64,000 bases of DNA from Alistipes sp. (lineage in GTDB: Bacteria > Bacillota > Clostridia > Oscillospirales > Ruminococcaceae): the NCBI GenBank assembly GCA_023667265.1, contig JAMPAJ010000002.1, positions 101,334 through 165,333 on the forward strand, given 5' to 3'. Below, piece after piece: positions 4,607 to 50,928 of the stretch. A program made the translations under genes and the position numbers. Numbering within the stretch: position 1 is the first letter of the stretch; every line of letters begins with the position of its first letter. The notes beneath the pieces were generated by a model, which saw nothing but the letters and a program-made list of their open reading frames with translations, was not told the DNA's origin and did no database searches.

Positions 4607-6865
4607 TTATGCTGTTTCTGACGGAAGAGATTTCAGATTGCCTGCGTCATAGCTCTGGATCGCGAGAGCGTCGAGAGCCGTTATGCCGTCGCCGGGATCG
4701 CAGCAGTCCGCATTCCTTTTCTCCTGTGCGCTGAGCTGGTACTTATCTCCGTTGCCGATGTGCTGGAGCACCAGCGTTGCGTCTGAAATATCGACCTCGC
4801 CGTCGCAGTTCGCATCGCCGTAAAGGGTCTTGCTCTCCATTTCCGCGAGTATCTCCAGGTTCTGGTCATAGCTCTTGCTTTCAGCTTCGAGGGCGGGAGC
4901 TCCTTCAAGGCTCGCCTGGTAGCGGCTGTATACCTCGTCAAAATCCGATGTGTCCGTATGCTTGATGACGTACATCTGAACCGCAAGAATGTCGTAGATA
5001 TCCTTTGTCGTGCCGTTTCCGTTGATATCGAAGCCTTCCTCGATGTTATTCCATATTTCAGCCGGAAGCGCGCTGTCAGCGGCGGTTTTTCCGTTGATCA
5101 GCTCCTTCATGTATGTGTTGATCGTGAAGTAGTCGTAGAGGTCGACAGCTCCGTCCATATTGACATCGGGAGCGGCGGTAAGACCAGCATCGACGTTGTC
5201 GCAGTAGGTGAGGAAAAGCTCGTTAAGGTCGTCTATGTTGTATTTCAGCCATGCGTCGTCGTCGACCCTGAGCCCGAGCCGTGCAGCCGCCTGCTCGACC
5301 AGATAATTTATTATTCCGCTGTCAGGACGATAGTAGCTGCTGCCATAGGTCTTGATATAGTATTCCTCAGTGAAGTACTCCGGTCTCATTTCGATATGCT
5401 CAACGATATAGTGCGTCAGGTAGTAGCGGAACGTATGTACATCCCTTGACTGTGTATCTGTGAAGCGATAGCAGTCCTGCAGACCGTTGTCCTCTGTGCG
5501 CTCGACGCAATACTCTGTTATTATGCCGGGACAATGGGACATTGCCGTATCGCAGCGCTTCCATTCCTCGTTGGAAATATATCCCTTGTTTTTATCCTGT
5601 GTCCCAAGATATTCAAAGACATAGAAGACATAGAGATCGCCGATGTCAAGCTGACCGTTTCCGTTAAAGTCCAGGTCGATAGACATATCGAGTTCGTATG
5701 CGGTATTCCATTCGCCTGTCGTGTCCTCGTACATCTCGGCGAATATGTCATAGCCTGCCCGGAGGTAGTACAAGTGATCCTCCAATTCCTTGATGTAGTT
5801 GTACAGAACATTATAGTCCGTGCTGAAATCATCCATGGGGAAATCGGGGTCATAGAAGGTAGGATTAAGCTGCGCGCGTTTCACTCCGCCGTTTATTATC
5901 AGATATCTTTCGAGATGCTCTGAATCCTGGAAGTTGACCACTCCGTCGCCGTTGTAGTCTGCGATAGCCTCGATTCGCTCCCGGTCTGCGTCGTCAAGGT
6001 CTATCTTACCTAATTTCTTGTACTTCTCCGCAAAATAGTTTCTCGCGTTTTCCGCATATTTTTCGGCTAATTCCGGTCTGTCGGAATAGCTCGCATAGAT
6101 ATGCTCTATGGTCTCTTCAACGGCTTCGATCTGGCAGTATCTCTTTTCAAAGGTATAGCAGAAAAGCTTAAAGCCGTCCAGAACGTCGAAAGCTCCGTCG
6201 CCGTTTATATCGAGGTCGAGCTCGCCGCTTTCCATTTTAGCGAATATCGCCTTTTCTCCTGCCCAATATCTCGATTCGTCGATCTTGTATTCTGCGCTGC
6301 CTATTATCGGCGATGCCGAGGCTGCTATCAGTAATGCGGATGTACCTAATGCTGCGATTTTTTTCATATAGATTCTCCCTTCGGTTTCCGTCTGCGCTGT
6401 GCAGACTGTCGTACTTGGCGGAATTTCGTTTGTGTGGAGCTTTGTTTCAAGGGCTGTCTGTGTCTGCCTGGCTTCCGTGTCAGCCGATATGCCCTGGCTG
6501 TGGGGCTGCGTCTGTACCGCCGGGGCAGCCTCCGCGGTCGCTGTGCCGGGAGCAGGAGCGGTCTGTGCAGTCTCCTGCAATGACGTATCGTGATAAGGGC
6601 TCGTTCCAGGTGCAGCAGTCGTGGTCTGAGGGCTCGTTTCAGTCTCGGCAGCCGTGACAGGAATATTCATATCCGGATAATTATTATTAAGTATAACGTC
6701 AATATCCGACGTGCCCCGGACTCCGAGGCATATGAGAAGGACTGCGCAGAGCTGCGCTGCAAGGCATGAGACCCTTTTTATCCCGGAAGCCCTTCTCTGC
6801 TTCCGTTCAAGCAGCTCGTCGCCCCTTTTAAATACTCTTTCTGCAATATCCTCATAACTCTTCAT
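4607..6865 (-). CDS. Anti-sigma-like membrane protein with Pro/Thr linker, several Ca-binding dockerin-like loops and a C-terminal dockerin; possible internal start at 6367
   Basis: MKSYEDIAERVFKRGDELLERKQRR plus a TM segment, P/T-rich linker, second signal peptide MKKIAALGTSALLIAASA with RBS GAAGGGAG, five DxNGDG-type loops, C-terminal YGDANCDGEVDISDATLVLQHI...ADCCDPGDGITALDALAIQ. The longer track start (6967) lies inside the ICE end. Confidence 0.75.
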   Translation of the reverse strand: MKSYEDIAERVFKRGDELLERKQRRASGIKRVSCLAAQLCAVLLICLGVRGTSDIDVILNNNYPDMNIPVTAAETETSPQTTTAAPGTSPYHDTSLQETAQTAPAPGTATAEAAPAVQTQPHSQGISADTEARQTQTALETKLHTNEIPPSTTVCTAQTETEGRIYMKKIAALGTSALLIAASASPIIGSAEYKIDESRYWAGEKAIFAKMESGELDLDINGDGAFDVLDGFKLFCYTFEKRYCQIEAVEETIEHIYASYSDRPELAEKYAENARNYFAEKYKKLGKIDLDDADRERIEAIADYNGDGVVNFQDSEHLERYLIINGGVKRAQLNPTFYDPDFPMDDFSTDYNVLYNYIKELEDHLYYLRAGYDIFAEMYEDTTGEWNTAYELDMSIDLDFNGNGQLDIGDLYVFYVFEYLGTQDKNKGYISNEEWKRCDTAMSHCPGIITEYCVERTEDNGLQDCYRFTDTQSRDVHTFRYYLTHYIVEHIEMRPEYFTEEYYIKTYGSSYYRPDSGIINYLVEQAAARLGLRVDDDAWLKYNIDDLNELFLTYCDNVDAGLTAAPDVNMDGAVDLYDYFTINTYMKELINGKTAADSALPAEIWNNIEEGFDINGNGTTKDIYDILAVQMYVIKHTDTSDFDEVYSRYQASLEGAPALEAESKSYDQNLEILAEMESKTLYGDANCDGEVDISDATLVLQHIGNGDKYQLSAQEKRNADCCDPGDGITALDALAIQSYDAGNLKSLPSETA

Positions 6866-26688: not shown

Positions 26689-27431
26689 ATGGAACACATT
26701 CTGTCTCTCAGCTACGGCAAGGACAGTCTTGCCTGTTTGGGAGCAATTGAAAAATTAGGGTGGCAGCTCGACAGAATAATTCACGCTGAAATATGGGCAA
26801 CAAAAACTATTCCTGCCGATTTGCCGCCGATGATTGAATTTAAAGAAAAAGCCGATAGGGTTATAAAAGAGCGTTATGGACTGACAGTTGAACATATTAC
26901 TGCCGATGATACATACGAGGAAATATTTTTCCGCACTTACGTCAGGGGTAAAAACAAGGGCGTTATATACGGTTTCCCGTGTATAAAAGGCAATTGGTGC
27001 AACAGCAAATTAAAGGTCAAAGCATTGGATAAATGCAAAACAAACGGTGTTAGATATATCGGAATAGCTTTTGACGAACCAAACAGATTTAAAGTTCTGA
27101 ACAGCTTGAAAAAATCTCCCCTTGTATCTGCAAAATGGACTGAAAAAATGTGCTATGACTGGTGCGCGGAAAACGATTTGCTTTCTCCGGTCTACAATAC
27201 GTCAGCTCGCGGCGGCTGTTGGTTCTGCCATAATCAGAGTGTAGAGCAGCTTCGCATACTCCGCAAAAGTTACCCCGATTACTGGAAACTGCTTCTGCAA
27301 TGGGACAGCGTTTCTCCGATTTCCTTTAAGCCTGAACATACCGTACTCGATTACGAAAACGTTTTCAGCTTGAAGATATGGGACTTATGTATCCTAATGA
27401 CAGACGTTTTCGGTGGGAATGGGTAAATTAA
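26689..27431 (+). pseudogene. PAPS-reductase-family (adenine nucleotide alpha-hydrolase) protein with an apparent 1-nt deletion near the C-terminus
   Basis: SLSYGKDS PP-loop, WCNSKLK, RGGCWFCHNQ. Adding one A at the A4 run 27356-27359 gives DYEKRFQLEDMGLMYPNDRRFRWEWVN* (stop 27429-27431). Confidence 0.65.
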
Positions 27432-30450: not shown

Positions 30451-33400
30451 ATGGAAATGCCAAACAACAAGGTCAGTGAAGCACAGGCAATTTATATCGG
30501 TGAAATACGGCGAGTTCAGGAGACTGCCGAAAAGTGGAGAGATTTTCTTGATTTTGCGGCACAGGCGCAGATAAGTGAAAATCAGAGTGAATTTGAATTT
30601 TCCTCAAAGCTGATTATTCACGCGCGTAATCCAAATGCCAAAGACTGCCGCCCGTTCGGTGAATGGAAAACAGAGGACGGAAATCACGTCAGCCGGCTTG
30701 AAAGGGGAATACCCGTATTATCCCGTGACAGCAGAGGAAATCAGTCTGTAACGTATCTTTTCGATACAAGTCAGACAGCGTTAAAAAAAGAGCCTGAACG
30801 TATTGAAATCCCCGAAGAAATGAGGGAAAATCTTAAATCTGCTCTAAGCGGAATAATTAAAGATTTTTCGGACAATACTTCACTTTCCGACGTACAGAAG
30901 CGCATTTTTGCTGAAACTGCCGAATACAAGCTGTGCAAACAGTACGGACTTGAAACGGCAGAAAATCCCGAAAGATTTTCAGGTATTGAAAAGCTGTCAG
31001 TAAAAGAAATTGCAAACATCGGTGTAGCTCTTAACAGGTGCAGTAATTCTTTTGCTGAAACGGTAAAAAACGAAAGGAGTAATTTCAATGAGCGAGGTAA
31101 CAACAGTCAATCAAGAGATGATAGGACAGAATTATACGGACAGGAACGGCGTGGAGTGGATTTGGGACAAGGAGTATCGGGAACACGTGATGAAGTACGT
31201 TTACGACGAGAACATGAACGAATGGAGCAAACTCAACGAGGAGAACATGACATACGAACCGCTGATAGAAATTCCGCAGCCGAAGCCGACAGCGGCAATG
31301 GGCAAGTACGGCAGTATGAGACTGAAATTCATATGGCAGACCCCGTGCCTGTTGGAGATACTTCTCACGGACAATCAGGTGAAGCACTGCGAGGAAATGA
31401 ACGAGAAAGTTCTGAACCTGATAGAGAACATAGTGGAGAAGAAAAAGCAGTCGGAGGAATACAAGGCGATAGAGGAAACGGGGAAATTCCTGCCGAAAGT
31501 GCAGATACTGGAGAGGTACAGAGCAGAAGCGGAGGAGGAAATACTTCCCGTGACGGTTTACGCGATATAACGGAGGAAACGGCAGAGCCTGAAAAGGTTT
31601 CTGCCGTTTCTGTTTCCGAAAATGAACAGTCAGACCCTTTTGAAAACTTCAAACGTTCCAAAGACGGAGATATTATCTTAGGCAACACTACTTTCAGATA
31701 TATTCCCGAAAAGACCTATACCCAAATTGACAAGGATATAGCTGTCGAGGTTTCGGAACAGCTTGAGAAGCAAGGCATAAAATTTTCGGGAGTTATAAAG
31801 GGAGACACGGCAACAATTACCGTGAGCAAGCCGCAGAAAGAAACGCTTGACAGGATTATTGCGGATATTTCTTCTCCCAACAAAGATATTGCTGCCGAAG
31901 AAAGCATTGACACTCCCGAATTGACAGATAAGGAAAAGGCTTTTTTGGACGGAGAAACAGCTCCGCTTATGGCTAAAGATGTGCTTGCTTGGGACGAAAT
32001 AGAAGATATTGGCTACCGTTTGTACGAAAAAGGATATATCGACCGTCACGCTCCGAGCGAAAAGGCAATATACGGAAACGGTCTGAATGAACCCGTGCTT
32101 TACGATATGGCTAAGCGTATGCAAAACGGCGAGGATATTGGCAAAGAACTGTCTTTAGCTCTGCTCGGAAATCAGCGCACGTTTGACATAAACATTTTTG
32201 ACGAATTTAATGTTGAATACGGCAGTGACTTTATTACAGCCAAATTCGGCAATGCTGAAAAACAGGTAAGCTATGAGGAACTGGAAAATGCTTTTTTCAA
32301 ATTGTTCAAAGATGAGTATGATGATATTGTTCACGGCAGAACGGTTGAGGATTTGAGAGATATTTTTCCCGATATTACGGGCGAAACCGCCGATAACCTT
32401 ATCAATGCCTTTGACGGTGCAATTATGCACGGCTGGCAGGATAACGAGGTTGTTCAGCGTAAAATCAAAAAGGCTTTGTATAATATTCTCGGTGATAAGG
32501 AAAATACCGAAAAGGCTTTTTCTTCTATTGCAGATATGAAATATAACGTAAAAATAAGCAATATCGGCTTTTTCTCTCTCGGCAACGGTGTGACTGTCTG
32601 CGATACTTCCCGTATGGATAAGGAAACAAACGATTATGTTAAGGTGGCTCACATTTCGCCGGAGGGCGTACTTACTATGTACGATAATTCCGTCTCCCAA
32701 CAGGATATGGCAAGTATCAGGCAGCAAGTCAATACTGTGCGTGATGAATTTGTGCGGAACTGGAACTCAATGTCGAGGACGCAGCAGTTTGAAATGCTTC
32801 TTGACAGAGCCGATATTACCACACAGGTCAATATTTCCAAAGACAGTATCTCTATGGAAGAAAAAATTGAAAAATATATGCCCTATGTATTTTTCAAAAA
32901 AGGCGAAAGACCCGAACCGCAGACGGCAGAGCAGAATAATATCAAAAATATTGAATTTATTGGTGAAAGAGATAGCTTTGAAGCCGTAAAAGCAGCGGCT
33001 CGAACTCAATCCTTTGGTACTACCGTGACTGACGGCAACAGGCTTTCTATCGTTATGTATGATAATGCCGATGTTGACGAGGTAAGAAAACTCTTAGAAA
33101 CTGCACAAGAAAACAATGTTTTTGAAACTGTTGAAACCGCTAAAATGCTTGAAGATAAATTCGGAGCAGTTTTTTCATATAATTCTCAAAACAATCCCAC
33201 TGTTGCCGATTTATCGGCAGGAGATGTAATTCTCTATGAGGGCAAGCGAAGAGAAGTTGAAAAAATAAGCGAAAACAGCATAAGTCTGAAAGATTTGGAC
33301 GCGCCCGATTTCGGAGGTATTTTGCTCGGTACAAGTGACGTACTTGCGTATAAGGGCTGGCAGGAGGATATGAACGAAAAGGGTTTTGAAATTCTTTCCA

Positions 33401-36400
33401 AAGCCAAAACTTACTCCGAAATCACAAGGGATATGTACCAAACAGAAAATCCCGATATATTTACCGTTAAGGGCAAAGGCAGCTTTGCAAAAATTGATAT
33501 TACGGTCAATGCGGAGCTGTGGGAAAGGCTTGCCGAAAAGGGACTTGTACGGAACGAGAACAGTGTTGACAGGGTAATTTTCAATATTGATAACAAGGAA
33601 TGGAACAAACTTGTAATTCCCGATAAATGGGGAAATATGACCAACAATATCAATATCGAGGACGTTTTTACCAGTGAGGAATTGCAGACAGCTAAATCTG
33701 TTGCGGATTTTGTTATCGGAAATGAGGATATTCAGCAAGTGCTTGACAATTTCAATGAGGATATAACTCCTGTTGAAAATAATACGTCATTTTCGGAGGA
33801 AATAAGCGGCAGTAACGGCACTGTCAAATATAAGGTAACGGAAAACGCTGACGAGCAGTACAAATATAATGTGCAGATATTCACTCAGGGGGAGAACGGC
33901 GAATTTTATTACAGCGGCTTAGGTCGCTTCTGCGAAACGCTTGATGAAGCTCACGCTTTTATTGAAAATGATATTGCAGAGCGTACTGCCGCAAAGGATA
34001 GGCAACATTCCGATAAGGACGAAATCACCGGAAACGATGAATATAACATTTCACAGGGACAGATGTCACTGTTTGATGATATTCCGGATATAGAGGAAAT
34101 TCCCAATGAAAGAAACTATCAGGTTGTTACTTATTCTCGTGATTTGGGTGCAGATGACAAAAAGATTTTTTCAACATTGGACGAAGCCGTTGAAAGCGGC
34201 AGAGGATATTTGTATGACAAGGAACACGAGGGTTATTATTCGGGCATTGCCATTCTTAACACAAAAGAACAAAAGGTTGAATATTATGAGGGTGATTTCC
34301 CGTTAGAGGGTATTTTCAGCGAACAGGTATACCAAAACAGCGGTAATTGGCAGAGAGCCGAGCCAATTCCAAACTTACTGTTTGACAAGTTTGATGAGCA
34401 TTACAACGAAATGTATAAAAATCACGATGAAGTCAACGGTTATGACGAAGCGGTCGCTGTCGGTGACAAATTTATTAGGGAAAATCCCGATATTATGGAA
34501 AGAATAGCAAATTCCAGAAATGATGTTATTACCAGTGACCGTGAAGCAGCAGCTCTCGCATTTGCACTTGCCGACGTGGGTATGATTGACAAATTTGTTG
34601 AACCTGAACAGTCTAAACAACAGAAAGTTCAGCAGAATTTAGTTACATCGGTGCATACTGAACAATCGCCGTTAAATCCGGAACGTGTCACGGTGACACA
34701 CTCCGAAGCTGCAAAAGTGCCTGACATTGATGTTGAAAAGCCGGAAGAAAAGAAAACCAATAACCTTTTCCGCATAACAGACGAGCATTTGGGCGAGGGC
34801 GGCAAAAAGGAAAAATTCAGGAATAACATTGAAGCTATAAAAACGCTGCAAATCCTTGAAGCCGAAGAACGCGCCGCAACTCCCGAAGAACAGGAAACAC
34901 TGTCCAAATATATCGGCTGGGGCGGTTTGCAGGAAGCGTTTGACAATTCTCTCTCCGCTTGGGATACGGAATACCGCGAACTTAAAAATCTTCTTTCCGA
35001 GGAAGAATACGAAGCCGCACGGTCTACCGTAAACGACGCGTTTTACACTTCTCCGGTCATAACACAGGCAATTTATGAGGGACTTGCGAACATCGGATTT
35101 AACGGCGGAGAAGTCCTTGAGCCGTCAATGGGTGTGGGAAACTTTTTCGGAACTATGCCCGATAAAATGCGTGAAAACAGCAATCTGTCGGGAATTGAAA
35201 TCGACAGCATTTCGGGACGTATCGCCAAAAAGCTCTATCCCGAAGCGGATATTGCCATAAACGGCTATGAAAATATAAAGCTGACCAAAGGCTCTTTTGA
35301 CTTGGCTGTGGGCAACGTTCCGTTCGGAAATCACGGTGTAAACGACAAAACAAAGGCATACAAAGGACTTCTGATACACGACTACTTCTTTGCCAAATCC
35401 CTTGACAGCGTTCGTTCGGGCGGTATTGTTGCTTTTGTAACGTCAACGGGTACGCTCGATAAAGACGATACGAAAGTCCGTCAAATGCTTGCACAGAAAG
35501 CGGAGCTTTTGGGCGCGGTCAGACTGCCTAACAATGCTTTTCAGAAAAACGCAGGAACACAGACGGCAACCGATATTATCTTTCTGAAAAAGCGTGAAAA
35601 ACCGCTTAATATCAGCGAAATGCCTATGGATAAATCCTGTGAATGGGTGCATACAAAGGAAAACGCCGACGGTCTGAAAATAAACAGCTATTTTGCCGAC
35701 AATCCCGAAATGGTTTTAGGCGAACTTTCCGACAAGGGACGTTTCGGCAGTATAATATGCACTCCCGTTCAGGGCGCAGACCTTAAAGAACAGCTTCACG
35801 AAGCTATGAAAAATATCAAGGGAGAATACGTTCCCCTTGAATTTCAGCAGGAGCTTGACGAACGTGCGGAAAATAACTATCTGACCGCAACTCCCGATAT
35901 TGAAAATCTGACCTATACTGTTGTGGACGATAAGCTGTATTTCCGTGTTGACGATAACCTTATTCCGCTGAAAGAAAGCGAACAGCACGGAGTGACCGCA
36001 GACCGCCGCAAAGGTTTGTGCGATTTGGGTTTAACCGTCAGGGAGCTTTTGAAAGCGCAAGTCGAGGACAGACCCGACAAGGAAATAAAGCTGCTGCAAG
36101 CGGAGCTTAACGTTAAGTATGATAAATTCGTTCAGAAATTCGGACGGATAAATCCCACGGAAACGCCAAACTCAAGAAATGCAAGCGGAGTTACAAGAAA
36201 AGCTCCCAACAGCAACGTTTTCAAAAACGACGTAAGGCTGCCGCTTTTGCAGTCCCTTGAAAAAATGAAAGAGGGGCAGTTTGTAGGCAAAACAGAGATA
36301 TTCACCGAAAGAACCATACGTCCCCGTAAGGTAGCGGAACACGTTGAAACCGCTCACGAAGCATTGATTTTGTCAATATCCGAAAAGGGAAAAATTGACT

Positions 36401-39400
36401 TTGATTATATGCAGGACTTGACAGGCTTTGAGAAAGAAAAAATAGTTTCCGATTTGCACGGTGACATATACCCTGTTCCCGAACTTTCCACGGAAGATAA
36501 TACCGTATATCAGACAAGCGATGAGTATTTATCGGGAAATATCTATAAAAAAATAGCTATGGCGGAAGCAAAAATATCGGAAAATCCTGCCTATGCGGAA
36601 AATGTGGCGGCTCTGACGGAAGTAATACCGAAACCGCTGAAAGCCACGGAAATAGATATGCAGCTCGGTATGACTTGGATTGACACGAAAATCATTCAGC
36701 AGTTTATGTATGAAACTTTTGAAACTCCGCAGCGTTTCAAGGAATATGACGGAGATGTTCCGCAGGAAAATCCCTCCGCTATAACCGTTCACTATTCGGG
36801 CGCAGGAAAAGGCTCTTGGAAAGTTGAAAACGCATGTCTTGACAATTCCGTGAAGTCTACGAAAAATTTCGGTACAAAGGATTTGAACGCTTATGAACTG
36901 CTTGAAAAAATCCTTAACGCTAAATCGGTCGCGGTAACGCAAACCGTAAGAGATGAGGAGGGCAGACAAAAGACCGTAATTCTTGAAAAGCAGACAAAGG
37001 CAGCGGAGGATAAAGTCAAGCAGATAAACGCCGCTTTCAAAAAATGGATTTTTGCAGACCCCGAAAGGCGCAATGAGCTTGTAAAGACGTACAATGAAAA
37101 ATTCAACGGCATACGTCCCCGTGAATACGACGGCAGCAATCTTAATTTCTTCGGTTCAAATCCCGAAATAACGCTGAAACCGCATCAGAAAAATGCTGTG
37201 GCGCACGCGCTTTTCGGCGGCAATACGCTGTTCGCACATCAGGTCGGCGCAGGAAAAACCTTTGAGATGATAGCCACGGCAATGGAGGGAAAACGTCTCG
37301 GACTGCACAATAAGAGTATGTTTGTCGTTCCAAATCATCTGACGGAACAGATAGGCTCTGACTTTATGAAGCTGTACCCTAACGCTAATATTCTTGTGGC
37401 AAAGCCGGACGATTTTTCTCCGCAGAAGCGCAGACAGATGTGCGCAAGAATTGCAACGGGAAATTTCGACGCGGTAATTATAGGACATTCACAGCTTATA
37501 AAAATTCCGCTTTCCGCGAAGCGTGAAGAAGAATTTATACGCAAGCAGATAAACGAGGTTGTATCAGCTCTTGAAGCTGCCGAGGAAACCGACAGCAAAA
37601 GCTACACGGTAAAGCAGCTCGAAGCAACAAGAAAAAATCTCCGTGAACGTCTTGAAAAGCTGACCAACGGCACGGTCAAGGACAATGCGGTCACATTCGA
37701 GGAGCTTGGTGTGGATAAGCTGTTTGTAGACGAGGCTCACGAGTTTAAAAACCTCTATGTTTCCACAAAAATGGAGAACGTTTCGGGACTTTCCACTAAT
37801 GCCGACGTTCAGAAAACGCAGGATTTGTATATGAAATGTCAGTATCTTGACGAAAAAACAGGCAGCAAAGGTATTGTTTTCAGTACGGGAACGCCTGTGA
37901 CCAACGCTCTCTCGGAAATGTACACCACAATGAAATATTTGCAGTCCGATTTGCTGAAAGAAACAGGTCTTGACAGTTTCGATGCGTGGGCAGGAAATTT
38001 TACAAGAAAATCCACCGAAGCGGAAATCTCGCCCAGCGGCAGCGACTGGAGAATGAAAACACGTTTGAAATTCACCAACGTTCCCGAACTTGTCACTATG
38101 TTCAAAGAATGCGCCGATGTGAAAATGGCAGACCAACTCAATCTCGATGTGCCTGAATGCGAAAAGCACATTGTTTCGGTTGAGCCGACAGAAGCGCAAA
38201 AATCAGTTGTACAGTCCCTTGCGGTAAGAGCTGAAGCTATCAGCAAGGGAGAGGTTTCAAGAACAGAGGATAATATGCTTGTTGTAACAGGTGACGGAAG
38301 AAAGCTCGGTCTTGACCAACGGCTTTATGACCTTAATCTGCCCGACGAACCGCAGACAAAGTTAAACGCTTGTATTCAGAACGTTTTTGACATATGGGAA
38401 AATACGTCCGAAAAGAAGTCAACGCAGCTTGTTTTCTGTGATTTGGGTGTGCCGCAGTCCAAAGAAGATTTGAAAAAGAACGGAGAACGGTTTGACGTTT
38501 ATTCCGATATTCGTTCAAAGCTGATAGAAAAAGGCATACCCGAAAAGGAAATAGCCTTTATCCACGAAGCCAACAGCGAAACGGAAAAGGCGAAACTGTT
38601 TGCAAAAGTCCGCAGCGGAGACGTTCGTGTGCTTATCGGTTCAACGCAGAAAATGGGCGCAGGAACTAATGTGCAGGACAAACTTGTCGCACTTCACGAC
38701 CTTGACTGCCCTTGGAGACCCGCCGACCTAACGCAGCGTTTGGGACGTATGGTTAGACAGGGCAACGAAAACAAGAAAGTAGACAATTTCAGATATGTTA
38801 CCAAAGGCACGTTCGACGCATATCTGTACCAAATGGTAGAAAAAAAACAGGAAAGCATTTCGCAGATTTTCACGTCAAAGGCTATTGCGCGAACCTGTGA
38901 CGATATTGACGATATGGCGGTTGACCTTATGCAAGTCAAAATGGCTGCCGTGGGAGACGACCGTATCAGGCGGCAAATGGAGCTTAGAGAGGATATTCGC
39001 AGTCTGAATATGCTGAAAAATACATATCTTGAAAATAAATACGAAATTGAGGACAACATAAAAAGGCTGCCGTCCAAAATTGCCAACACGGAAAAAATAA
39101 TCGAGGGAATTGCCGCCGACACCAAAACGGTAAAAGGATATGTTCCCAAAAAGGATATTGACGGTCAGGAAGTTTTTGAAATGAAAGTCGGAAACACCTT
39201 GTACGTTGATAAAAAAGAAGCGGCGGAAGCTCTCAAAGCTGCTATGACAAGTGCTGTTATGGGAAATCCGAAAGCGCAAACGGATATAGCCGAATACAAA
39301 GGCTTCAAAATAGCCGTTTCCTATGACGGCTTCGCAAAATCTTACAAAGGACATCTTAAAGGCGAAAACATTTATTCCTTTGATTTTGGCAGCAGCGAAA

Positions 39401-40071
39401 GCGGAAATCTCACGAGAATAGATAACGCGATAGCTTCTGTTCCTATGCGTATAGATAAAGTCTGCAACGAGCTTGAACGTATGAAAACTGAGCTTGCCGA
39501 CAGCATAAAGGAAGCCGATATGCCGTTTGAGCATGAAGCGGAGCTTGAGGAAAAGAAACAGGAGCTTGAACGTCTGACTGACGAGATAAACGCCGATAAG
39601 GTAAAAGGTGAGATTGCGCCGGAACAGCCGGAAAGCACGGGAAAATCCTCAGAAAAGCCGGAAAAACAGGTGCAGACCGAAAAAGTTGATAATCTCAACA
39701 TCAAATGGCGGCAGAACGACAAGGAGCTTCGCATAACCTATGACAGAACCGCCGACAGCAAGATTACCGCATATTCGGACGGAAAAGAAATAGGGCATTG
39801 CTCCCCCGACGAGCTGACGGTCACTAAAATCAGCGGGAGCGAACAGAAAAAATATCCCGACGGAATAACAAAGTGCGTCGAACCTTTAAACCTTGCGTTC
39901 AGCAGTAAAATGGCTATGCACATCAATAACTTTGCCGAAAGGGTGAAAGAAGCGGAAAAGTCCGTTTCAAGGGACGATAAGGCACTTTTCTCCCGTGACA
40001 GGATTATGAGCGATGATTTCAAGCCAACCTCGGAAAAGTCAGCCGATACTCCCAAATCTCAGTCGCTTTAA
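30451..40071 (+). CDS. 3206-aa DarB-like protein: ArdC-like N-terminus, N6-adenine MTase and SNF2-type helicase
   Basis: LEPSMGVGNF, GNVPF, HQVGAGKT, FVDEAHEFKN, GTPVTN, MGAGTNVQ, QRLGRMVRQGN. Confidence 0.9.
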   Translation: MEMPNNKVSEAQAIYIGEIRRVQETAEKWRDFLDFAAQAQISENQSEFEFSSKLIIHARNPNAKDCRPFGEWKTEDGNHVSRLERGIPVLSRDSRGNQSVTYLFDTSQTALKKEPERIEIPEEMRENLKSALSGIIKDFSDNTSLSDVQKRIFAETAEYKLCKQYGLETAENPERFSGIEKLSVKEIANIGVALNRCSNSFAETVKNERSNFNERGNNSQSRDDRTELYGQERRGVDLGQGVSGTRDEVRLRREHERMEQTQRGEHDIRTADRNSAAEADSGNGQVRQYETEIHMADPVPVGDTSHGQSGEALRGNERESSEPDREHSGEEKAVGGIQGDRGNGEIPAESADTGEVQSRSGGGNTSRDGLRDITEETAEPEKVSAVSVSENEQSDPFENFKRSKDGDIILGNTTFRYIPEKTYTQIDKDIAVEVSEQLEKQGIKFSGVIKGDTATITVSKPQKETLDRIIADISSPNKDIAAEESIDTPELTDKEKAFLDGETAPLMAKDVLAWDEIEDIGYRLYEKGYIDRHAPSEKAIYGNGLNEPVLYDMAKRMQNGEDIGKELSLALLGNQRTFDINIFDEFNVEYGSDFITAKFGNAEKQVSYEELENAFFKLFKDEYDDIVHGRTVEDLRDIFPDITGETADNLINAFDGAIMHGWQDNEVVQRKIKKALYNILGDKENTEKAFSSIADMKYNVKISNIGFFSLGNGVTVCDTSRMDKETNDYVKVAHISPEGVLTMYDNSVSQQDMASIRQQVNTVRDEFVRNWNSMSRTQQFEMLLDRADITTQVNISKDSISMEEKIEKYMPYVFFKKGERPEPQTAEQNNIKNIEFIGERDSFEAVKAAARTQSFGTTVTDGNRLSIVMYDNADVDEVRKLLETAQENNVFETVETAKMLEDKFGAVFSYNSQNNPTVADLSAGDVILYEGKRREVEKISENSISLKDLDAPDFGGILLGTSDVLAYKGWQEDMNEKGFEILSKAKTYSEITRDMYQTENPDIFTVKGKGSFAKIDITVNAELWERLAEKGLVRNENSVDRVIFNIDNKEWNKLVIPDKWGNMTNNINIEDVFTSEELQTAKSVADFVIGNEDIQQVLDNFNEDITPVENNTSFSEEISGSNGTVKYKVTENADEQYKYNVQIFTQGENGEFYYSGLGRFCETLDEAHAFIENDIAERTAAKDRQHSDKDEITGNDEYNISQGQMSLFDDIPDIEEIPNERNYQVVTYSRDLGADDKKIFSTLDEAVESGRGYLYDKEHEGYYSGIAILNTKEQKVEYYEGDFPLEGIFSEQVYQNSGNWQRAEPIPNLLFDKFDEHYNEMYKNHDEVNGYDEAVAVGDKFIRENPDIMERIANSRNDVITSDREAAALAFALADVGMIDKFVEPEQSKQQKVQQNLVTSVHTEQSPLNPERVTVTHSEAAKVPDIDVEKPEEKKTNNLFRITDEHLGEGGKKEKFRNNIEAIKTLQILEAEERAATPEEQETLSKYIGWGGLQEAFDNSLSAWDTEYRELKNLLSEEEYEAARSTVNDAFYTSPVITQAIYEGLANIGFNGGEVLEPSMGVGNFFGTMPDKMRENSNLSGIEIDSISGRIAKKLYPEADIAINGYENIKLTKGSFDLAVGNVPFGNHGVNDKTKAYKGLLIHDYFFAKSLDSVRSGGIVAFVTSTGTLDKDDTKVRQMLAQKAELLGAVRLPNNAFQKNAGTQTATDIIFLKKREKPLNISEMPMDKSCEWVHTKENADGLKINSYFADNPEMVLGELSDKGRFGSIICTPVQGADLKEQLHEAMKNIKGEYVPLEFQQELDERAENNYLTATPDIENLTYTVVDDKLYFRVDDNLIPLKESEQHGVTADRRKGLCDLGLTVRELLKAQVEDRPDKEIKLLQAELNVKYDKFVQKFGRINPTETPNSRNASGVTRKAPNSNVFKNDVRLPLLQSLEKMKEGQFVGKTEIFTERTIRPRKVAEHVETAHEALILSISEKGKIDFDYMQDLTGFEKEKIVSDLHGDIYPVPELSTEDNTVYQTSDEYLSGNIYKKIAMAEAKISENPAYAENVAALTEVIPKPLKATEIDMQLGMTWIDTKIIQQFMYETFETPQRFKEYDGDVPQENPSAITVHYSGAGKGSWKVENACLDNSVKSTKNFGTKDLNAYELLEKILNAKSVAVTQTVRDEEGRQKTVILEKQTKAAEDKVKQINAAFKKWIFADPERRNELVKTYNEKFNGIRPREYDGSNLNFFGSNPEITLKPHQKNAVAHALFGGNTLFAHQVGAGKTFEMIATAMEGKRLGLHNKSMFVVPNHLTEQIGSDFMKLYPNANILVAKPDDFSPQKRRQMCARIATGNFDAVIIGHSQLIKIPLSAKREEEFIRKQINEVVSALEAAEETDSKSYTVKQLEATRKNLRERLEKLTNGTVKDNAVTFEELGVDKLFVDEAHEFKNLYVSTKMENVSGLSTNADVQKTQDLYMKCQYLDEKTGSKGIVFSTGTPVTNALSEMYTTMKYLQSDLLKETGLDSFDAWAGNFTRKSTEAEISPSGSDWRMKTRLKFTNVPELVTMFKECADVKMADQLNLDVPECEKHIVSVEPTEAQKSVVQSLAVRAEAISKGEVSRTEDNMLVVTGDGRKLGLDQRLYDLNLPDEPQTKLNACIQNVFDIWENTSEKKSTQLVFCDLGVPQSKEDLKKNGERFDVYSDIRSKLIEKGIPEKEIAFIHEANSETEKAKLFAKVRSGDVRVLIGSTQKMGAGTNVQDKLVALHDLDCPWRPADLTQRLGRMVRQGNENKKVDNFRYVTKGTFDAYLYQMVEKKQESISQIFTSKAIARTCDDIDDMAVDLMQVKMAAVGDDRIRRQMELREDIRSLNMLKNTYLENKYEIEDNIKRLPSKIANTEKIIEGIAADTKTVKGYVPKKDIDGQEVFEMKVGNTLYVDKKEAAEALKAAMTSAVMGNPKAQTDIAEYKGFKIAVSYDGFAKSYKGHLKGENIYSFDFGSSESGNLTRIDNAIASVPMRIDKVCNELERMKTELADSIKEADMPFEHEAELEEKKQELERLTDEINADKVKGEIAPEQPESTGKSSEKPEKQVQTEKVDNLNIKWRQNDKELRITYDRTADSKITAYSDGKEIGHCSPDELTVTKISGSEQKKYPDGITKCVEPLNLAFSSKMAMHINNFAERVKEAEKSVSRDDKALFSRDRIMSDDFKPTSEKSADTPKSQSL
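31088..31570 (+). CDS. TnpV-like protein nested in the +1 frame of the giant helicase gene
   Basis: RBS GAAAGGAG before the ATG; MGKYGSMRLKF..LLEILL..HCEEMNE..YRAEAEEEIL..VYAI matches the TnpV pattern. Confidence 0.72.
   Translation: MSEVTTVNQEMIGQNYTDRNGVEWIWDKEYREHVMKYVYDENMNEWSKLNEENMTYEPLIEIPQPKPTAAMGKYGSMRLKFIWQTPCLLEILLTDNQVKHCEEMNEKVLNLIENIVEKKKQSEEYKAIEETGKFLPKVQILERYRAEAEEEILPVTVYAI
34683..34701. repeat. ICE palindrome copy 8 (intragenic)
   Basis: ACGTGTCAC-G-GTGACACAC within the helicase gene (encodes RVTVTH in a linker). Confidence 0.85.
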
Positions 40072-47303: not shown

Positions 47304-47639
47304 TTATGAAATAATCTCAATACCTTTTTTCAGAAAATAATTTTTTCTTTCTGTAGTATTCATTTTAACCTCATCACCGCTTAGCTCTATAATGTTGACT
47401 GAATTGTCATTGCAATTAACACCAATTTCATAAAATGGTTTGCGCCATTCCTTACCGCAGCTTTCACAGTGAGCATGACTAATCCGCCACACAGGTGGTG
47501 TGGTACATTCATCAGCAATTCTGTCCGAATATTCGTCAAAACCTTCGTCTGTCAGTACCGCTTTTTTGATATATGTAAGAGTGTAAAGGATGTCTACTAT
47601 TATTTCTCCGCCGCATTTTGGGCAATGTAGTATGTTCAT
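47304..47639 (-). CDS. Zinc-ribbon hypothetical protein
   Basis: MNILHCPKCGG...HAHCESCGKEW; RBS AAGGAGG. Confidence 0.7.
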   Translation of the reverse strand: MNILHCPKCGGEIIVDILYTLTYIKKAVLTDEGFDEYSDRIADECTTPPVWRISHAHCESCGKEWRKPFYEIGVNCNDNSVNIIELSGDEVKMNTTERKNYFLKKGIEIIS

Positions 47640-47657
47640 AAAATAACCTCCTTTATA

Positions 47658-47676
47658 GTGTGTCACCGTGACACAC
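47658..47676. repeat. ICE palindrome copy 13 (perfect)
   Basis: GTGTGTCAC-C-GTGACACAC, overlapping the last codons and stop of parB (SVSR*). Confidence 0.95.
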
Positions 47677-49600
47677 TCTCAAAATATTCCGTCAGCAGCT
47701 TTTCCGCAAGTTCGTCAAGCTCCTTTTCACTCTTGTCAATAGCAAACCTTGAAAAAATATTGTTGTAAACATTGCTCTTGTATTTCTTCAAAGGTTTCGG
47801 CGCAAGCAGCTTTGTAAATTCGTGGAACGGAACGTCCTCGCCGCCGTAAGTCTCTACGATTTGAGCAAACTCCTTTGCAATTTCGGGAGTGATTTTCTTG
47901 CTGTCGGGACGTGAAAGAAAATTCAGAACCGCTTTTTGATTTCCCTCCGAAAATGCCGCTATGATTTCGGCGGCGGCAAGCTGAATTTTTCCCTCGTCCG
48001 CATATTTCTGTAAATGAACATTCAGACTTGCTACACTTATGTAACGGTACATAGTCTTTTTCGATACTCCGAATTTAGCGGCAATTTCAGCGGCTGTCAT
48101 ATCAGTATCAGCACGCTTATCCATATATGCGGAGAATATTTTTCCGTACTCACTGGGCAAAGTCCTGTCCCTCTGAATATTGCTCTCTGCAACAATTTTA
48201 AAGGCTTCATCGTCTGTGATTTTTCTAACCACGCAAGGTACGGAAAGCAGATTAAGCTGCCGTGCCGCTTCATAGCGGTGATGTCCTGCAATTATCTGAT
48301 AATTATTACCGTCAGTTTTGCGGACTATCAGGGGCGTTACAATGCCTATATCCTCGGCACTCGCCATAATCTGAGCTATCTTGTCACTGTTCAGATTAAA
48401 CGGCTGTGAACCGCCTTTCTCGTCCTCATAGTGGTGCAGCAGATTAAGCTCGATACTTTCAACCTTTTCAAAAGAACTGCCCCACACATTGTTATAGGAC
48501 TGCTTTAATGCTGTGTTTTCCGTATCGGTCTTTTGCTTTGCTTCAATTCGTTTTTGCATTGCTTCAACACGCTTCTTGTCAATATCAAGCGGATTTTCAG
48601 CAGTTATCGCTATCATGTCCAACGGGTCAAGACAGCCGTGTTCGCTTATTTCTGAAAAGCGTGATAAATCAAGTTTTCCCATATTATTTTCCTTTCTGTA
48701 AATATTGTGCCGTCTGCAATAGTTATCCCACGTTTCGCTGCGGAATTTGCCGCTGTAAATAAATCTTTGTGCAAATTCCAACTGGATTTTATCAGGGATA
48801 ATACCCTTGCTTTCGTTTCTTTCCGCTTGGGCATAAAGCGTTATACCTTTGAATTTCTTTAGACGTTCCGCTCTTTCGGCTGCATTGTCAACGTCCTTTG
48901 TAACCAACAGATAAATAAACAGCCTGTAAGGTTTAACTCCGTATTTCATAAGAAGCTCCGCAGCATTTTCAATAGCTGCAATTTGCGCCGATGTATCGCA
49001 GCTGAACCGAATGTATTTTATCCATTTCAGCCGCGAGAGTATCTGCGCTATGCTATCGGTAACAAGACGTGCATCCATACCCTGATTAAGGTCAATAGCG
49101 TAACCGCTGTCAATCAGACTTTCGAGCTGCCGTATGCCGTATTCGCTTGCGAGAATGTTGTTGTCCATAAGCACAAGTTTACGGCTGTCAGGTCTTACAA
49201 GCTGCTCCCACGTTCTGTACGGCTTAATATTGCCCTCCTTTTCGGGAACAATGCACCAACGGCAATGATTGGGACAACCTCTCGTTATGTAGCCTATGGC
49301 GTAGTCACAGTCGGGATAAATACTGTAATCGGGAAACATTTCCTCAATTTCGGCAGGAAGAACGGAATGTATGTCATACCCCGTCCCTCCCTTGACCGTA
49401 TCGGGCGGCAGCAGAGGATTTTCGGGAGTAAAGTCAAAAATCTTGCTTGAATAGACCCTGTCGTATTTTTTCTCCGGCTGCCACCATTCAACGGTATCTC
49501 CAACAGATTTGTGATAAGCCGATATTTTCATAAGCGCGTAATTGGGGAACGTCTTTCTTTTCAGATATTCCTTTTCGCTGTCGTGTAGAGCGATGTTCAT
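47663..49600 (-). CDS. parB: Radical SAM protein fused in frame to a ParB/RepB/Spo0J-family protein (internal ParB start at 48682)
   Basis: N-half has CPNHCRWC (CxxxCxxC). C-half has GIVTPLIVR..IIAGHHRYEAA, ESNIQR and HTH MTAAEIAAKFGVSKKTMYRY. Internal RBS AGAAAGGA before MGKLDL. Confidence 0.85.
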   Translation of the reverse strand: MNIALHDSEKEYLKRKTFPNYALMKISAYHKSVGDTVEWWQPEKKYDRVYSSKIFDFTPENPLLPPDTVKGGTGYDIHSVLPAEIEEMFPDYSIYPDCDYAIGYITRGCPNHCRWCIVPEKEGNIKPYRTWEQLVRPDSRKLVLMDNNILASEYGIRQLESLIDSGYAIDLNQGMDARLVTDSIAQILSRLKWIKYIRFSCDTSAQIAAIENAAELLMKYGVKPYRLFIYLLVTKDVDNAAERAERLKKFKGITLYAQAERNESKGIIPDKIQLEFAQRFIYSGKFRSETWDNYCRRHNIYRKENNMGKLDLSRFSEISEHGCLDPLDMIAITAENPLDIDKKRVEAMQKRIEAKQKTDTENTALKQSYNNVWGSSFEKVESIELNLLHHYEDEKGGSQPFNLNSDKIAQIMASAEDIGIVTPLIVRKTDGNNYQIIAGHHRYEAARQLNLLSVPCVVRKITDDEAFKIVAESNIQRDRTLPSEYGKIFSAYMDKRADTDMTAAEIAAKFGVSKKTMYRYISVASLNVHLQKYADEGKIQLAAAEIIAAFSEGNQKAVLNFLSRPDSKKITPEIAKEFAQIVETYGGEDVPFHEFTKLLAPKPLKKYKSNVYNNIFSRFAIDKSEKELDELAEKLLTEYFESVSR

Positions 49601-49788
49601 ATATCATCATTTTCAGTTATCAGTTTTACCCAACATATACCTGAAAAAAGAAACATAAGTATATGAAGTCCTGCCCCAATTTTTACAAAGGTATAGTTAA
49701 ATCCTATCATCAGAACAATAAGAAGTAACATTGTGGCTACGCCATTTATAGCTGTGAGTGCTCTCATTTTTCTAATATCATTATTCAT
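49597..49788 (-). CDS. Small two-TM hypothetical protein
   Basis: Coupled overlaps with both neighbours; hydrophobic. Confidence 0.55.
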   Translation of the reverse strand: MNNDIRKMRALTAINGVATMLLLIVLMIGFNYTFVKIGAGLHILMFLFSGICWVKLITENDDI

Positions 49789-50159
49789 TATGATTTTCCT
49801 TTCTGTGTTGCTAATTTTTTATATTTATGATAAAGATTTCTTACTTGAATTTCAAGCTGTCTTTTTGCAACATATGCTTCGTATTTTTCCTCAACTTGTA
49901 AAAACATACGCTCAAAATTTGTTTCGGAAACTCCGTAAAATCTTTCAGAAGTATTGATAAATTCTATTTTTGTTTTTCCAACAATGTCTTTTATAAAACC
50001 CAAAATAACAAGGCTAATTGCAAAGCCTATCATTAAATACAAGTTTTCAAAGACCCAAGCAAACACAACAAACGCTATTGGAACTAAAGCAAAAGTGAAA
50101 TAAACGGCTTTAATCTTTTTAGCTTTTGAAAAAGATTTTATCACTTCTTCATAATCCAT
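49788..50159 (-). CDS. Membrane hypothetical protein
   Basis: Two TMs; RBS AGGAAAGG located within the parA 3' end. Confidence 0.6.
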   Translation of the reverse strand: MDYEEVIKSFSKAKKIKAVYFTFALVPIAFVVFAWVFENLYLMIGFAISLVILGFIKDIVGKTKIEFINTSERFYGVSETNFERMFLQVEEKYEAYVAKRQLEIQVRNLYHKYKKLATQKGKS

Positions 50160-50928
50160 ATTTTGTATTTCCTTTCCTGCTTATAATCTCCTCCGCAACA
50201 CTCATAAAAGCCTTGCCGATAGTGGTTTTATCGGAAATGCTCTTGTCCGACATAACCGACTGTTCAGCCTGCGCAGGACAGTAGGGGACAGTCGTGTTAA
50301 ACACCAAATCCCCGTAACGCTTTTTGACCTCGCTGACAATTTCGTGAGCAACGGAAGTCCGCTGCTGTTTGTTCAGAAGTATGCCGAGGACTTTAAGCTG
50401 ACGGTTCGTGCTGTTGTTTATAGACTTCACCTTGTCAATCATTTTGTAAAGTCCCATATAAGAATACAGACCACTTTCAACAGGAATAATCACGCTGTCG
50501 GAAGCATTCAGAGCATTAGCCGCAAGCAAGTCAAGAAGCGTTCGGCAGTCAAAAATTATGTAGTCGTAAGCCTTGGAAATTTCCTTGTCCAACGAACGTT
50601 TTATAACATATCCGCTGTCGCTGTCATTGGCAATAAAAGCCGTAATTCCCGTGAGCATTTGTGAAGCAGGAACATAGTCAACTCCGCTTTCGGAATGACG
50701 TATAGCTTCGGAACAGTCCATATCAATCCCCGCAACAGTGTTGTAAATAAGCTCCGCCGATGTAGGCTTTCCGTCATAAGAATAGCCGAGAGCTTTGCTT
50801 GCGTTCCCCTGTTGGTCAAGGTCGATTACAAGAACCTTTTTCCCCGACTTTGCAAGTCCCTTTGCCGTGTGTACGGCGGTCGTGGTTTTGCCCACGCCGC
50901 CCTTTTCCGAAATCACCGAAATAATCAT
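50149..50928 (-). CDS. parA: ParA/Soj-family partition ATPase
   Basis: Deviant Walker A KGGVGKTT, VIDLDQQGNAS, YDYIIFDC, VIIPVE. Confidence 0.93.
   Translation of the reverse strand: MIISVISEKGGVGKTTTAVHTAKGLAKSGKKVLVIDLDQQGNASKALGYSYDGKPTSAELIYNTVAGIDMDCSEAIRHSESGVDYVPASQMLTGITAFIANDSDSGYVIKRSLDKEISKAYDYIIFDCRTLLDLLAANALNASDSVIIPVESGLYSYMGLYKMIDKVKSINNSTNRQLKVLGILLNKQQRTSVAHEIVSEVKKRYGDLVFNTTVPYCPAQAEQSVMSDKSISDKTTIGKAFMSVAEEIISRKGNTKYGL

Follow-up and report, generated by a model that had tools for sequence, protein, structure and literature searches.

The gene described here lies on the minus strand of a 64,000-nucleotide stretch of DNA from Alistipes sp. (Ruminococcaceae in the GTDB lineage; contig JAMPAJ010000002.1, positions 101,334 to 165,333), which is called the window and whose coordinates are used throughout. 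It belongs to an integrative and conjugative element (ICE) of a gut Ruminococcus and joins a radical S-adenosylmethionine (SAM) domain to a partition protein of the ParB family. The open reading frame (ORF) at 47663-49600 comprises 645 codons and contains no stop between the radical SAM domain, the linker and ParB, as a preliminary description of this DNA had stated. According to the same description, ParB keeps a ribosome-binding site and an ATG (48682) of its own. Both are found inside the frame: the ATG of Met307 occupies positions 48680-48682, and AGAAAGGAAAATAAT stands just before it. Homologous loci are designated by L numbers, homologous proteins and protein clusters by P numbers. The features of the gene are as follows, with the basis of each assignment in brackets; residue numbers (aa) refer to the 645-aa protein.

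47663..49600, minus strand: full fusion ORF, 645 aa, radical SAM domain, linker and ParB (domain matches and end-to-end homologs)
48683..49600, minus strand: radical SAM module, aa 1-306, with a small N-terminal Rossmann-like subdomain and a partial TIM barrel (phrog_9298 at E 1e-80, AlphaFold2 model, fold matches)
49253..49276, minus strand: CPNHCRWC, the CxxxCxxC motif of the 4Fe-4S/SAM cluster, C109/C113/C116, aa 109-116 (read from the sequence)
48473..48697, minus strand: linker, aa 302-376, predicted to be disordered (predicted local distance difference test, pLDDT, < 50 in the full-length model)
48680..48697, minus strand: Shine-Dalgarno (SD) sequence of parB (AGAAAGGAAAA) and ATG (Met307), kept inside the fusion frame (SD energy -8.6 kcal/mol; homology to standalone leaders)
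47666..48682, minus strand: ParB moiety, aa 307-645, with ParB_N, helix-turn-helix (HTH) and C-terminal helical region (profile matches; standalone orthologues begin at the same Met)
48275..48286, minus strand: GHHR, aa 439-442, replacing GERR in the CTP-binding motif (aligned with 7bnk, the ParB of M. xanthus)
49597..49600, minus strand: ATGA, overlap of the stop of a 63-aa gene with the start of the radical SAM ORF (sequence)
47660..47674, no strand: palindrome GTGTCACCGTGACAC, containing the stop codon of the fusion (..V S R *) (same position in homolog loci)

Conservation of the fusion and identity of its halves

More than 30 protein clusters (612-638 aa) align with the query over 100% of its length at 57-92% identity. 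In an alignment of the fusions both halves are conserved and a Met is present at the junction in every sequence. The GHHR motif and the Cys triad of the radical SAM domain are invariant in 29 homologs, which means that residues are kept in both halves. Logan contigs from two samples were compared with positions 47500-50300 and yielded 0 differences and 0 gaps. These samples may include the source sample; the conservation among homologs is the stronger argument against an artefact.

The SD sequence and ATG within the ORF resemble a gene boundary that has been lost, and the frame could thus be due to a recent stop-loss, to a sequencing or assembly error, or to a pseudogene. The first of these was one of two options offered by the preliminary description, which had suggested a search for the same fusion in other elements and for a missed stop near the start of ParB. 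The search revealed the fusion in over 30 independent clusters, the most distant at 57% identity, and the other assemblies are identical and contain neither a stop nor an indel at this site. Moreover, invariant catalytic and structural residues are found on either side of the junction. A recent stop-loss or an artefact is therefore refuted, and we regard all three explanations as extremely improbable. Because the join recurs across many related elements, it is taken to be selected and not erroneous. The second option, a selected fusion, is further supported by the precise placement of the module, by at least five gains or losses, and by fusions of the radical SAM domain to other ParB lineages and to DNA methyltransferases.

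The linker was assessed by means of a full-length AlphaFold2 model. Residues 302-376 have pLDDT values < 50, and no packing between the domains is predicted. Because of its low confidence (predicted template modelling score, pTM, 0.36), this model is informative only for the disordered linker, which is consistent with a flexible tether. A 32-aa insert in the linker (..LDPLDMIAITAENPLDIDKKRVEAMQKRIEAKQK..; 48535-48630, aa ~325-356) is confined to this copy and its 92% relative P0001.

The radical SAM domain is hidden from standard annotation. Its match to Pfam PF04055 (Radical_SAM) scores 21.9 bits, below the gathering cut-off of 29.5, so that the protein is labelled simply 'ParB'; for the same reason the public annotation of the close homolog P0004 reads only 'ParB/RepB/Spo0J family partition protein'. 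The profile phrog_9298 ('radical SAM domain protein') is matched at E 1.1e-80, with aa 15-256 aligned to profile positions 10-251 of 305. Among 32 family members, C109 and C113 do not vary and the conservation of C116 is 90% or more; in 29 fusions all three are invariant. An AlphaFold model of the domain, built on 32 sequences, is confident (pLDDT 92.7, pTM 0.87). Foldseek comparison of this model with the PDB yielded BlsE (probability 1.0) and PFL-AE (0.97) at template modelling (TM) scores of about 0.4; in a viral library, MiaB/MtaB-like, 'B12-binding-like' (E 5e-4) and COG1032 models were matched with TM scores of 0.4-0.6. Given the phrog_9298 match, the conserved Cys residues, the confident model and the fold matches, the N-terminal half is a genuine radical SAM domain without family assignment.

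Among the phrog_9298 proteins are those of Bacteroides LoVEphage and Clostridium phage phiCT453B (gp19). Aa 1-306 of the window protein are 37-55% identical to the phage proteins. The latter are standalone, ~300 aa long and without assigned function, whereas in the fusion the stop is missing and ParB follows. An exhaustive search for the family yielded 2,545 clusters at 50% identity, 1,385 of them at E < 1e-10. Most members comprise ~300 aa, and the family is mostly standalone and is found in phages, plasmids and ICEs. Full-text searches of the literature yielded no description of a radical SAM-ParB fusion or of the function of this family.

The module was further compared with characterized radical SAM enzymes. 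Like MiaB and RimO (7mjv, 4jc0) and the COG1032/B12-binding-like enzymes, it consists of a Rossmann-like N-terminal subdomain followed by a radical SAM core with the pattern RGC..C.[YW]C.VP..G. These are its best profile and fold matches, yet they are weak (E 0.008; TM 0.4-0.6): the family profile matched only MiaB and RimO in the PDB, over the cluster motif alone, at E 0.008. Unlike MiaB and RimO, the module has no conserved auxiliary-cluster Cys triad in aa 1-97 and no TRAM domain. Among 32 family members, no Cys in aa 1-97 is invariant; C98 is invariant among the fusions but is a single residue. Neither Pfam profiles nor the model revealed a TRAM or other nucleic-acid-binding domain in the module. 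A classification as methylthiotransferase was rejected on account of the missing triad and TRAM domain and of the profile match being limited to the cluster motif. The viperin, QueE, NrdG and PFL-AE types were likewise dismissed, as there is no sequence match and only generic fold similarity (TM about 0.4). The N-terminal Rossmann-like subdomain is short (model aa 1-72) and its match to TIGR04013 is weak (E 0.008); class B cobalamin binding cannot be deduced from it.

The C-terminal half contains ParB_N (PF02195, aa 398-476, E 5e-16) and reaches 75.3 bits for TIGR00180 (ParB/RepB/Spo0J), compared to a cut-off of 58.45; HTH_ParB scores 21.7 bits, just under its cut-off of 22.6. Solved CTP-dependent ParBs are matched at E 1e-13. 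With the ParB/Spo0J CTP clamps of B. subtilis (6sdk), M. xanthus (7bnk) and C. crescentus (6t1f) this half has in common ParB_N, the HTH and a nearby parA; in contrast to these, its nucleotide motifs are altered and an enzyme is fused to its N-terminus. Compared to 7bnk, GERRWRA is changed to GHHRYEA and ENLQR to SNIQR, with a Glu one position earlier. Both GHHRYE and SNIQR are invariant in the clade, which thus does not conform to the GERRxR and ENLQR nucleotide motifs. The preliminary description had singled out GHHR as unusual. The motif is indeed present at aa 439-442, but it is no oddity of this copy, being invariant across the clade. GHHR is typical of non-canonical ParB/Srx members. To judge from these replacements, it is uncertain whether canonical CTP binding, hydrolysis and clamp-like sliding occur, and they should not be assumed.

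The junction and the internal start

Three genes located upstream of the fusion are relevant for its origin:

49597..49788, minus strand: gene of a 63-aa protein with two transmembrane segments, a conserved upstream partner of parB with or without the radical SAM domain (68-69% identical in L058 and L060, which lack this domain)
49788..50159, minus strand: gene of a 123-aa protein with two transmembrane segments, part of the variable interval between parA and parB (homolog found only in L012)
50149..50928, minus strand: parA, a ParA/MinD-type ATPase (AAA_31 at E 1.5e-44, CbiA, ParA_partition)

The 123-aa and 63-aa ORFs each contain two hydrophobic segments. parA lies two small genes upstream of the fusion, and the same linkage is found in relatives where parA lies in the fetched DNA. 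All of them are on the strand of the fusion. The order parA, two small membrane genes and radical SAM domain is that of the preliminary description. Its interpretation as a three-gene insertion between parA and parB was wrong and has been abandoned: the 63-aa gene goes with parB and is located directly upstream of it also in relatives that lack the radical SAM domain, and the interval between parA and parB is variable in all relatives, where the number of small genes ranges from 1 to 14.

Scanning metagenomes with a ParB-half profile identified many ParB relatives (44-69% identity) that have no radical SAM domain upstream. These standalone proteins begin at the same Met (MGKIDFTAMK.., MGRKINLSSF..), and the homology extends into the leader, as is evident from aaacaggaggtacaagctATG in the linker of the fused locus L003 and aaacaggaggaacaagctATG in the standalone locus L058. 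The parB 5' leaders compared were aacaaacaggaggtacaagctATG for L003 versus aaataaacaggaggaacaagctATG for L058 and aaataaacaggaggtacaaaactATG for L060. According to blastn, the fused L003 locus equals L058 or L060 plus about 1.1 kb, with the additional DNA reaching to within about 21 nt of the parB ATG. Because the 63-aa gene precedes parB directly in both the fused and the radical SAM-less state, only a single ORF has been inserted. The inserted unit in the window is the radical SAM coding region alone, which follows the stop of the 63-aa gene and precedes the SD of parB. The 5' end of this insert is coupled (ATGA) and its 3' end lacks a stop. Standalone family members end 1-13 residues past the same C-terminal motif; it follows that the stop was specifically lost in the fusions. 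A likeness of the ribosome-binding sites at the 3' end of parA and in front of ParB, which had been pointed out earlier, is real insofar as both are SD sequences. However, they are ordinary ones, and the informative homology is that to the standalone parB leaders.

In L003, the gene with two transmembrane segments upstream of parB is tandemly duplicated (5594-5788 and 5804-6004; 64 and 66 aa), and the second copy is coupled to the start of the radical SAM domain. The module might have been gained and lost through recombination between paralogs of this kind.

The ATG of the radical SAM domain has no SD. An SD-less start within ATGA implies, as judged from the sequence, that translation would be coupled to that of the 63-aa gene. 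In contrast, the junction ATG possesses the strongest SD of all in-frame ATGs in six of the seven fused genes for which DNA was at hand. In these six genes the duplex energies of the junction SD range from -8.4 to -11.7 kcal/mol, which places them among the top 0.5-3.8% of gene positions and corresponds to the strength found in standalone genes. The SD strengths and the SD-less, coupled start of the radical SAM domain predict that abundant free ParB is made along with a smaller amount of the full-length fusion.

Gain and loss of the radical SAM module

In a tree of the ParB moieties, fused and standalone forms are interleaved, and well-supported branches force at least five gains or losses of the radical SAM domain. 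In L076 (2549-3658), an L003-type element, only the last ~60 residues of this domain are fused to ParB; the locus represents a deletion derivative that arose naturally. In the loci of this ParB clade, no radical SAM gene was found directly upstream of a separate parB; where the two occur in this order, they are always fused. The fusion exists in four architectures, namely a direct one and three with an additional module, which is a 99-aa 'WDG..LTW' module, a GNAT-like or a Cys-rich one. Furthermore, the radical SAM domain is fused to ParB lineages that cannot be aligned by BLAST or are at most about 25% identical (P0037, P0040, P0047). The lack of a split form, the four architectures and the occurrence in other ParB lineages argue for a physical link that is probably under selection.

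The homologs with an additional module comprise 711-919 aa (P0015, P0021, P0037, P0040, P0041, P0043, P0047). The modules inserted between the radical SAM domain and ParB are a 'WDG...LTW.MAAR' domain, a GNAT-like and a Cys-rich one. At each module boundary, a K/E-rich stretch, which is SD-coded, is followed by a Met, as if genes had been concatenated in frame.

It is conceivable that the read-through is neutral. The radical SAM enzyme and ParB would then act independently, and their fusion would be a harmless by-product of cassette joining, with the internal SD and ATG still supplying free ParB. This explanation is in line with the fact that both parts exist and evidently function alone, with the at least five gains or losses, and with the decayed remnant in one locus. 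The boundaries of the longer fusions, with their K/E-rich stretch and Met, resemble simple concatenation, and the linker is disordered and has no predicted interface. However, split arrangements should then be common, and none was seen in the loci of this clade with the radical SAM domain upstream. In addition, the frame has stayed open in four architectures and at least three ParB lineages, and the stop of the standalone members has been specifically removed in the fusions. We therefore consider neutral read-through unlikely and prefer a selected link.

The closest standalone radical SAM proteins (71-72% identity) are those of L013 and L014, where the gene is located one gene downstream of a parA/parB-like pair. 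Both loci contain the same set of separate genes, which are parA, a parB-like gene, a DUF6017/HTH_36 gene and the radical SAM gene. This arrangement is a second, unfused form of the association between the radical SAM enzyme and ParB. The ParB-like ORFs (L013, 3850-4914; L014, 3604-4536) match no Pfam family (E up to 1e-3 or 1e-5); a custom ParB profile matches them at E 1e-37 to 1e-39.

Partners of the radical SAM family and candidate function

Members of the family are also fused directly to a C5 methyltransferase (P0074, P0086), to N6_N4 and MT-A70 methyltransferases (P0079), and to a phosphoadenosine phosphosulfate (PAPS) reductase (P0088, P0106, P0116). In 29 standalone loci, a scan of the neighbours yielded nine matches to C5 methyltransferases, three to Dam, two to N6_N4 and three to PAPS reductase. 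These loci are typical prophage or ICE regions. Annotated phage records contain the same kinds of neighbours: in LoVEphage a PAPS reductase lies upstream of the radical SAM gene and methyltransferases lie downstream, and in an Oscillospiraceae phage a methyltransferase overlaps the radical SAM gene. The neighbours confirm the statement of the preliminary description that such genes occur in phage DNA-modification neighbourhoods. DNA-marking and anti-restriction modules have the same set of partners, namely ParB, DNA methyltransferases and PP-loop enzymes. In about 15 clusters within P0057-P0071 and P0055, an ABC-type ATPase is joined to the first ~250 residues of the radical SAM domain, whose barrel is truncated, and in one cluster a type IV secretion coupling protein is joined to the first ~260 residues.

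ParB-tethered methyltransferases are a recognised, little tested theme of phages and conjugative elements. That ParB is fused to modification enzymes elsewhere, as had also been stated earlier, agrees with the match of the ParB half to phrog_498, a ParB-methyltransferase family (E 5e-11). These ParB_N-methyltransferase fusions (PF02195 with PF01555 or PF00145) resemble the protein studied here in that a ParB-family module and a SAM-using enzyme form one polypeptide on a mobile element. They differ in that the catalytic partner is a methyltransferase and not a radical SAM enzyme. Moreover, the ParB of the window is a full partition ParB (ParB_N, HTH and C-terminal region) that is linked to parA and has an internal start. 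The 'polyvalent proteins' of conjugative elements, reportedly described by Iyer et al. in 2017, form the wider group around ParB-enzyme fusions. In DpdA/DpdB and DndB, ParB-like proteins work with DNA-modification enzymes as separate proteins in defence-type operons. They are a precedent for a ParB-fold partner of DNA-modifying machinery; the comparison does not extend to homology of the catalytic parts.

Partners and neighbours suggest that the substrate of the radical SAM enzyme is most likely a nucleic acid, or that the enzyme plays the part in DNA marking or anti-restriction that the methyltransferase has in the ParB-methyltransferase fusions. Alternatively, it might act on a protein or a small molecule, such as ParB itself, its nucleotide, a host defence protein or a signalling nucleotide, and ParB would then serve for co-localisation or co-regulation only. 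The substrates of radical SAM enzymes are very diverse, neither TRAM nor another nucleic-acid-binding domain is present in the module, a DNA-binding partner is missing from the vicinity of many standalone members, and the nucleotide motifs of ParB are altered. On the other hand, the domain is fused to three classes of DNA methyltransferases and to ParB, all of which are DNA-directed, and its closest relatives in sequence and fold, though weak, are nucleic-acid-modifying methylthiotransferases. For this reason, we deem a substrate other than nucleic acid quite improbable.

The feature is a conserved but facultative module fusion, which continues the ParB-enzyme theme with an uncharacterised radical SAM passenger. 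Starting from the conservation of the fusion, the anatomy of its junction, the repeated gain and loss and the associations of the family, we propose, with a probability of roughly 0.6, that the 645-aa gene codes for a selected, modular tether, which would bring a putative nucleic-acid-modifying radical SAM enzyme onto ParB-bound ICE DNA and leave the internal start to supply free ParB. A phrog_9298-family coding region was set precisely into the interval that separates the stop codon of the 63-aa gene from the SD of the ICE parB, and its frame runs on through the former parB leader into ParB. We expect two products. A low level of full-length protein, composed of radical SAM domain, linker and ParB, would arise from the SD-less start coupled to the 63-aa gene, and free ParB of 339 aa would arise from the strong retained internal SD and ATG. 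ParB would form dimers that bind ICE DNA, and its fused subunits would hold the radical SAM domain, presumably an intact enzyme with its invariant Cys triad, next to this DNA on a flexible tether of about 70 residues.

Several observations weigh against this proposal. The radical SAM domain is accessory and has often been lost, as shown by the at least five changes on the tree and the locus with a 60-aa remnant; ParB thus works without it. Conversely, the enzyme works without ParB, since 30 of 32 genome matches are standalone radical SAM proteins, 27 of which have no ParB-like ORF in the fetched flanks. Of the three arginines in GERRxR, this ParB has only one, and the catalytic Glu of ENLQR is replaced by Ser. 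In L001, which represents the most divergent fused lineage, the internal SD is weak (-5.2). None of the RNA runs contains the fusion sequence. The substrate is a guess by association, as the closest structures are weak matches (TM about 0.4; MiaB at E 0.008 over the motif only). Methyltransferases are common in accessory regions of phages and ICEs, and their enrichment among the neighbours, determined without a background control, is weak evidence.

In a bolder version, the radical SAM enzyme would install an undescribed mark on ICE DNA by radical chemistry. The mark would be delivered in cis by ParB loaded at the dispersed palindromes of the element, mixed dimers of fused and free subunits would set its dose, and it would protect the transferred DNA from restriction in new hosts. 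This version is possible but doubtful. If it were true, phrog_9298 would represent a new class of DNA-modifying enzymes that is interchangeable with the methyltransferase domain of ParB-methyltransferase fusions.

The main value of the fusion is that of an entry point to the function of a large orphan family. The slot that is otherwise occupied by a methyltransferase is filled here by a radical SAM domain from a very large orphan family of gut phages, plasmids and ICEs, and the fusion provides the whole family with a testable hypothesis, namely action on or near DNA. Related elements with the fused, the radical SAM-less and the remnant form offer a natural experimental handle. Chemistry on DNA would amount to a new type of epigenetic or anti-restriction mark. 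If the chemistry does not act on DNA, the locus still illustrates that mobile elements can assemble proteins of several domains when retained ribosome-binding sites are read through in frame.

The surroundings of the gene were confirmed to be those of a conjugative element, with a serine recombinase, a MobA/VirD2-type relaxase, a type IV secretion coupling protein and an orphan C5 methyltransferase. The 245-aa ORF that follows the C5 methyltransferase (26689-27426) has no Pfam match at E up to 1e-4. A 3206-aa ORF at 30451-40071 is part of the same ICE.

The palindrome at the end of the fusion gene belongs to a set of repeats. GTGTCACNGTGACAC is present in 11 copies in the window (11731-47674), compared to 0.02 expected, and one of these copies encodes the ..VSR tail and the stop of the fusion, as it does in homologs. 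The density is 4.4 copies per 10 kb in loci of the ParB clade, whereas no copy was found in 341 kb around standalone radical SAM genes. Since the palindrome is present in ParB-clade loci with or without the radical SAM domain, it characterizes the ICE/ParB lineage rather than the radical SAM enzyme. Variants of GTGTCAC-N-GTGACAC with a centre of 2 nt (TGTGTCAC-GC-GTGACACA and TGTGTCAC-AC-GTGACACA) and one with changed arms (GTGTGTCAA-T-TTGACACAC) occur in loci among L059, L061, L062, L065 and L073. The half-site TGTGTCAC is one base off the canonical parS half TGTTTCAC. With a centre of 1 nt here and 2 nt in sister lineages, the palindrome would suit a hairpin or recombination site no less than a duplex parS. 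Independent Logan contigs have breaks or branches precisely at the copy with which the fusion gene terminates (47657-47677), which is consistent with the palindrome being both a repeat and a junction between alternative cassettes.

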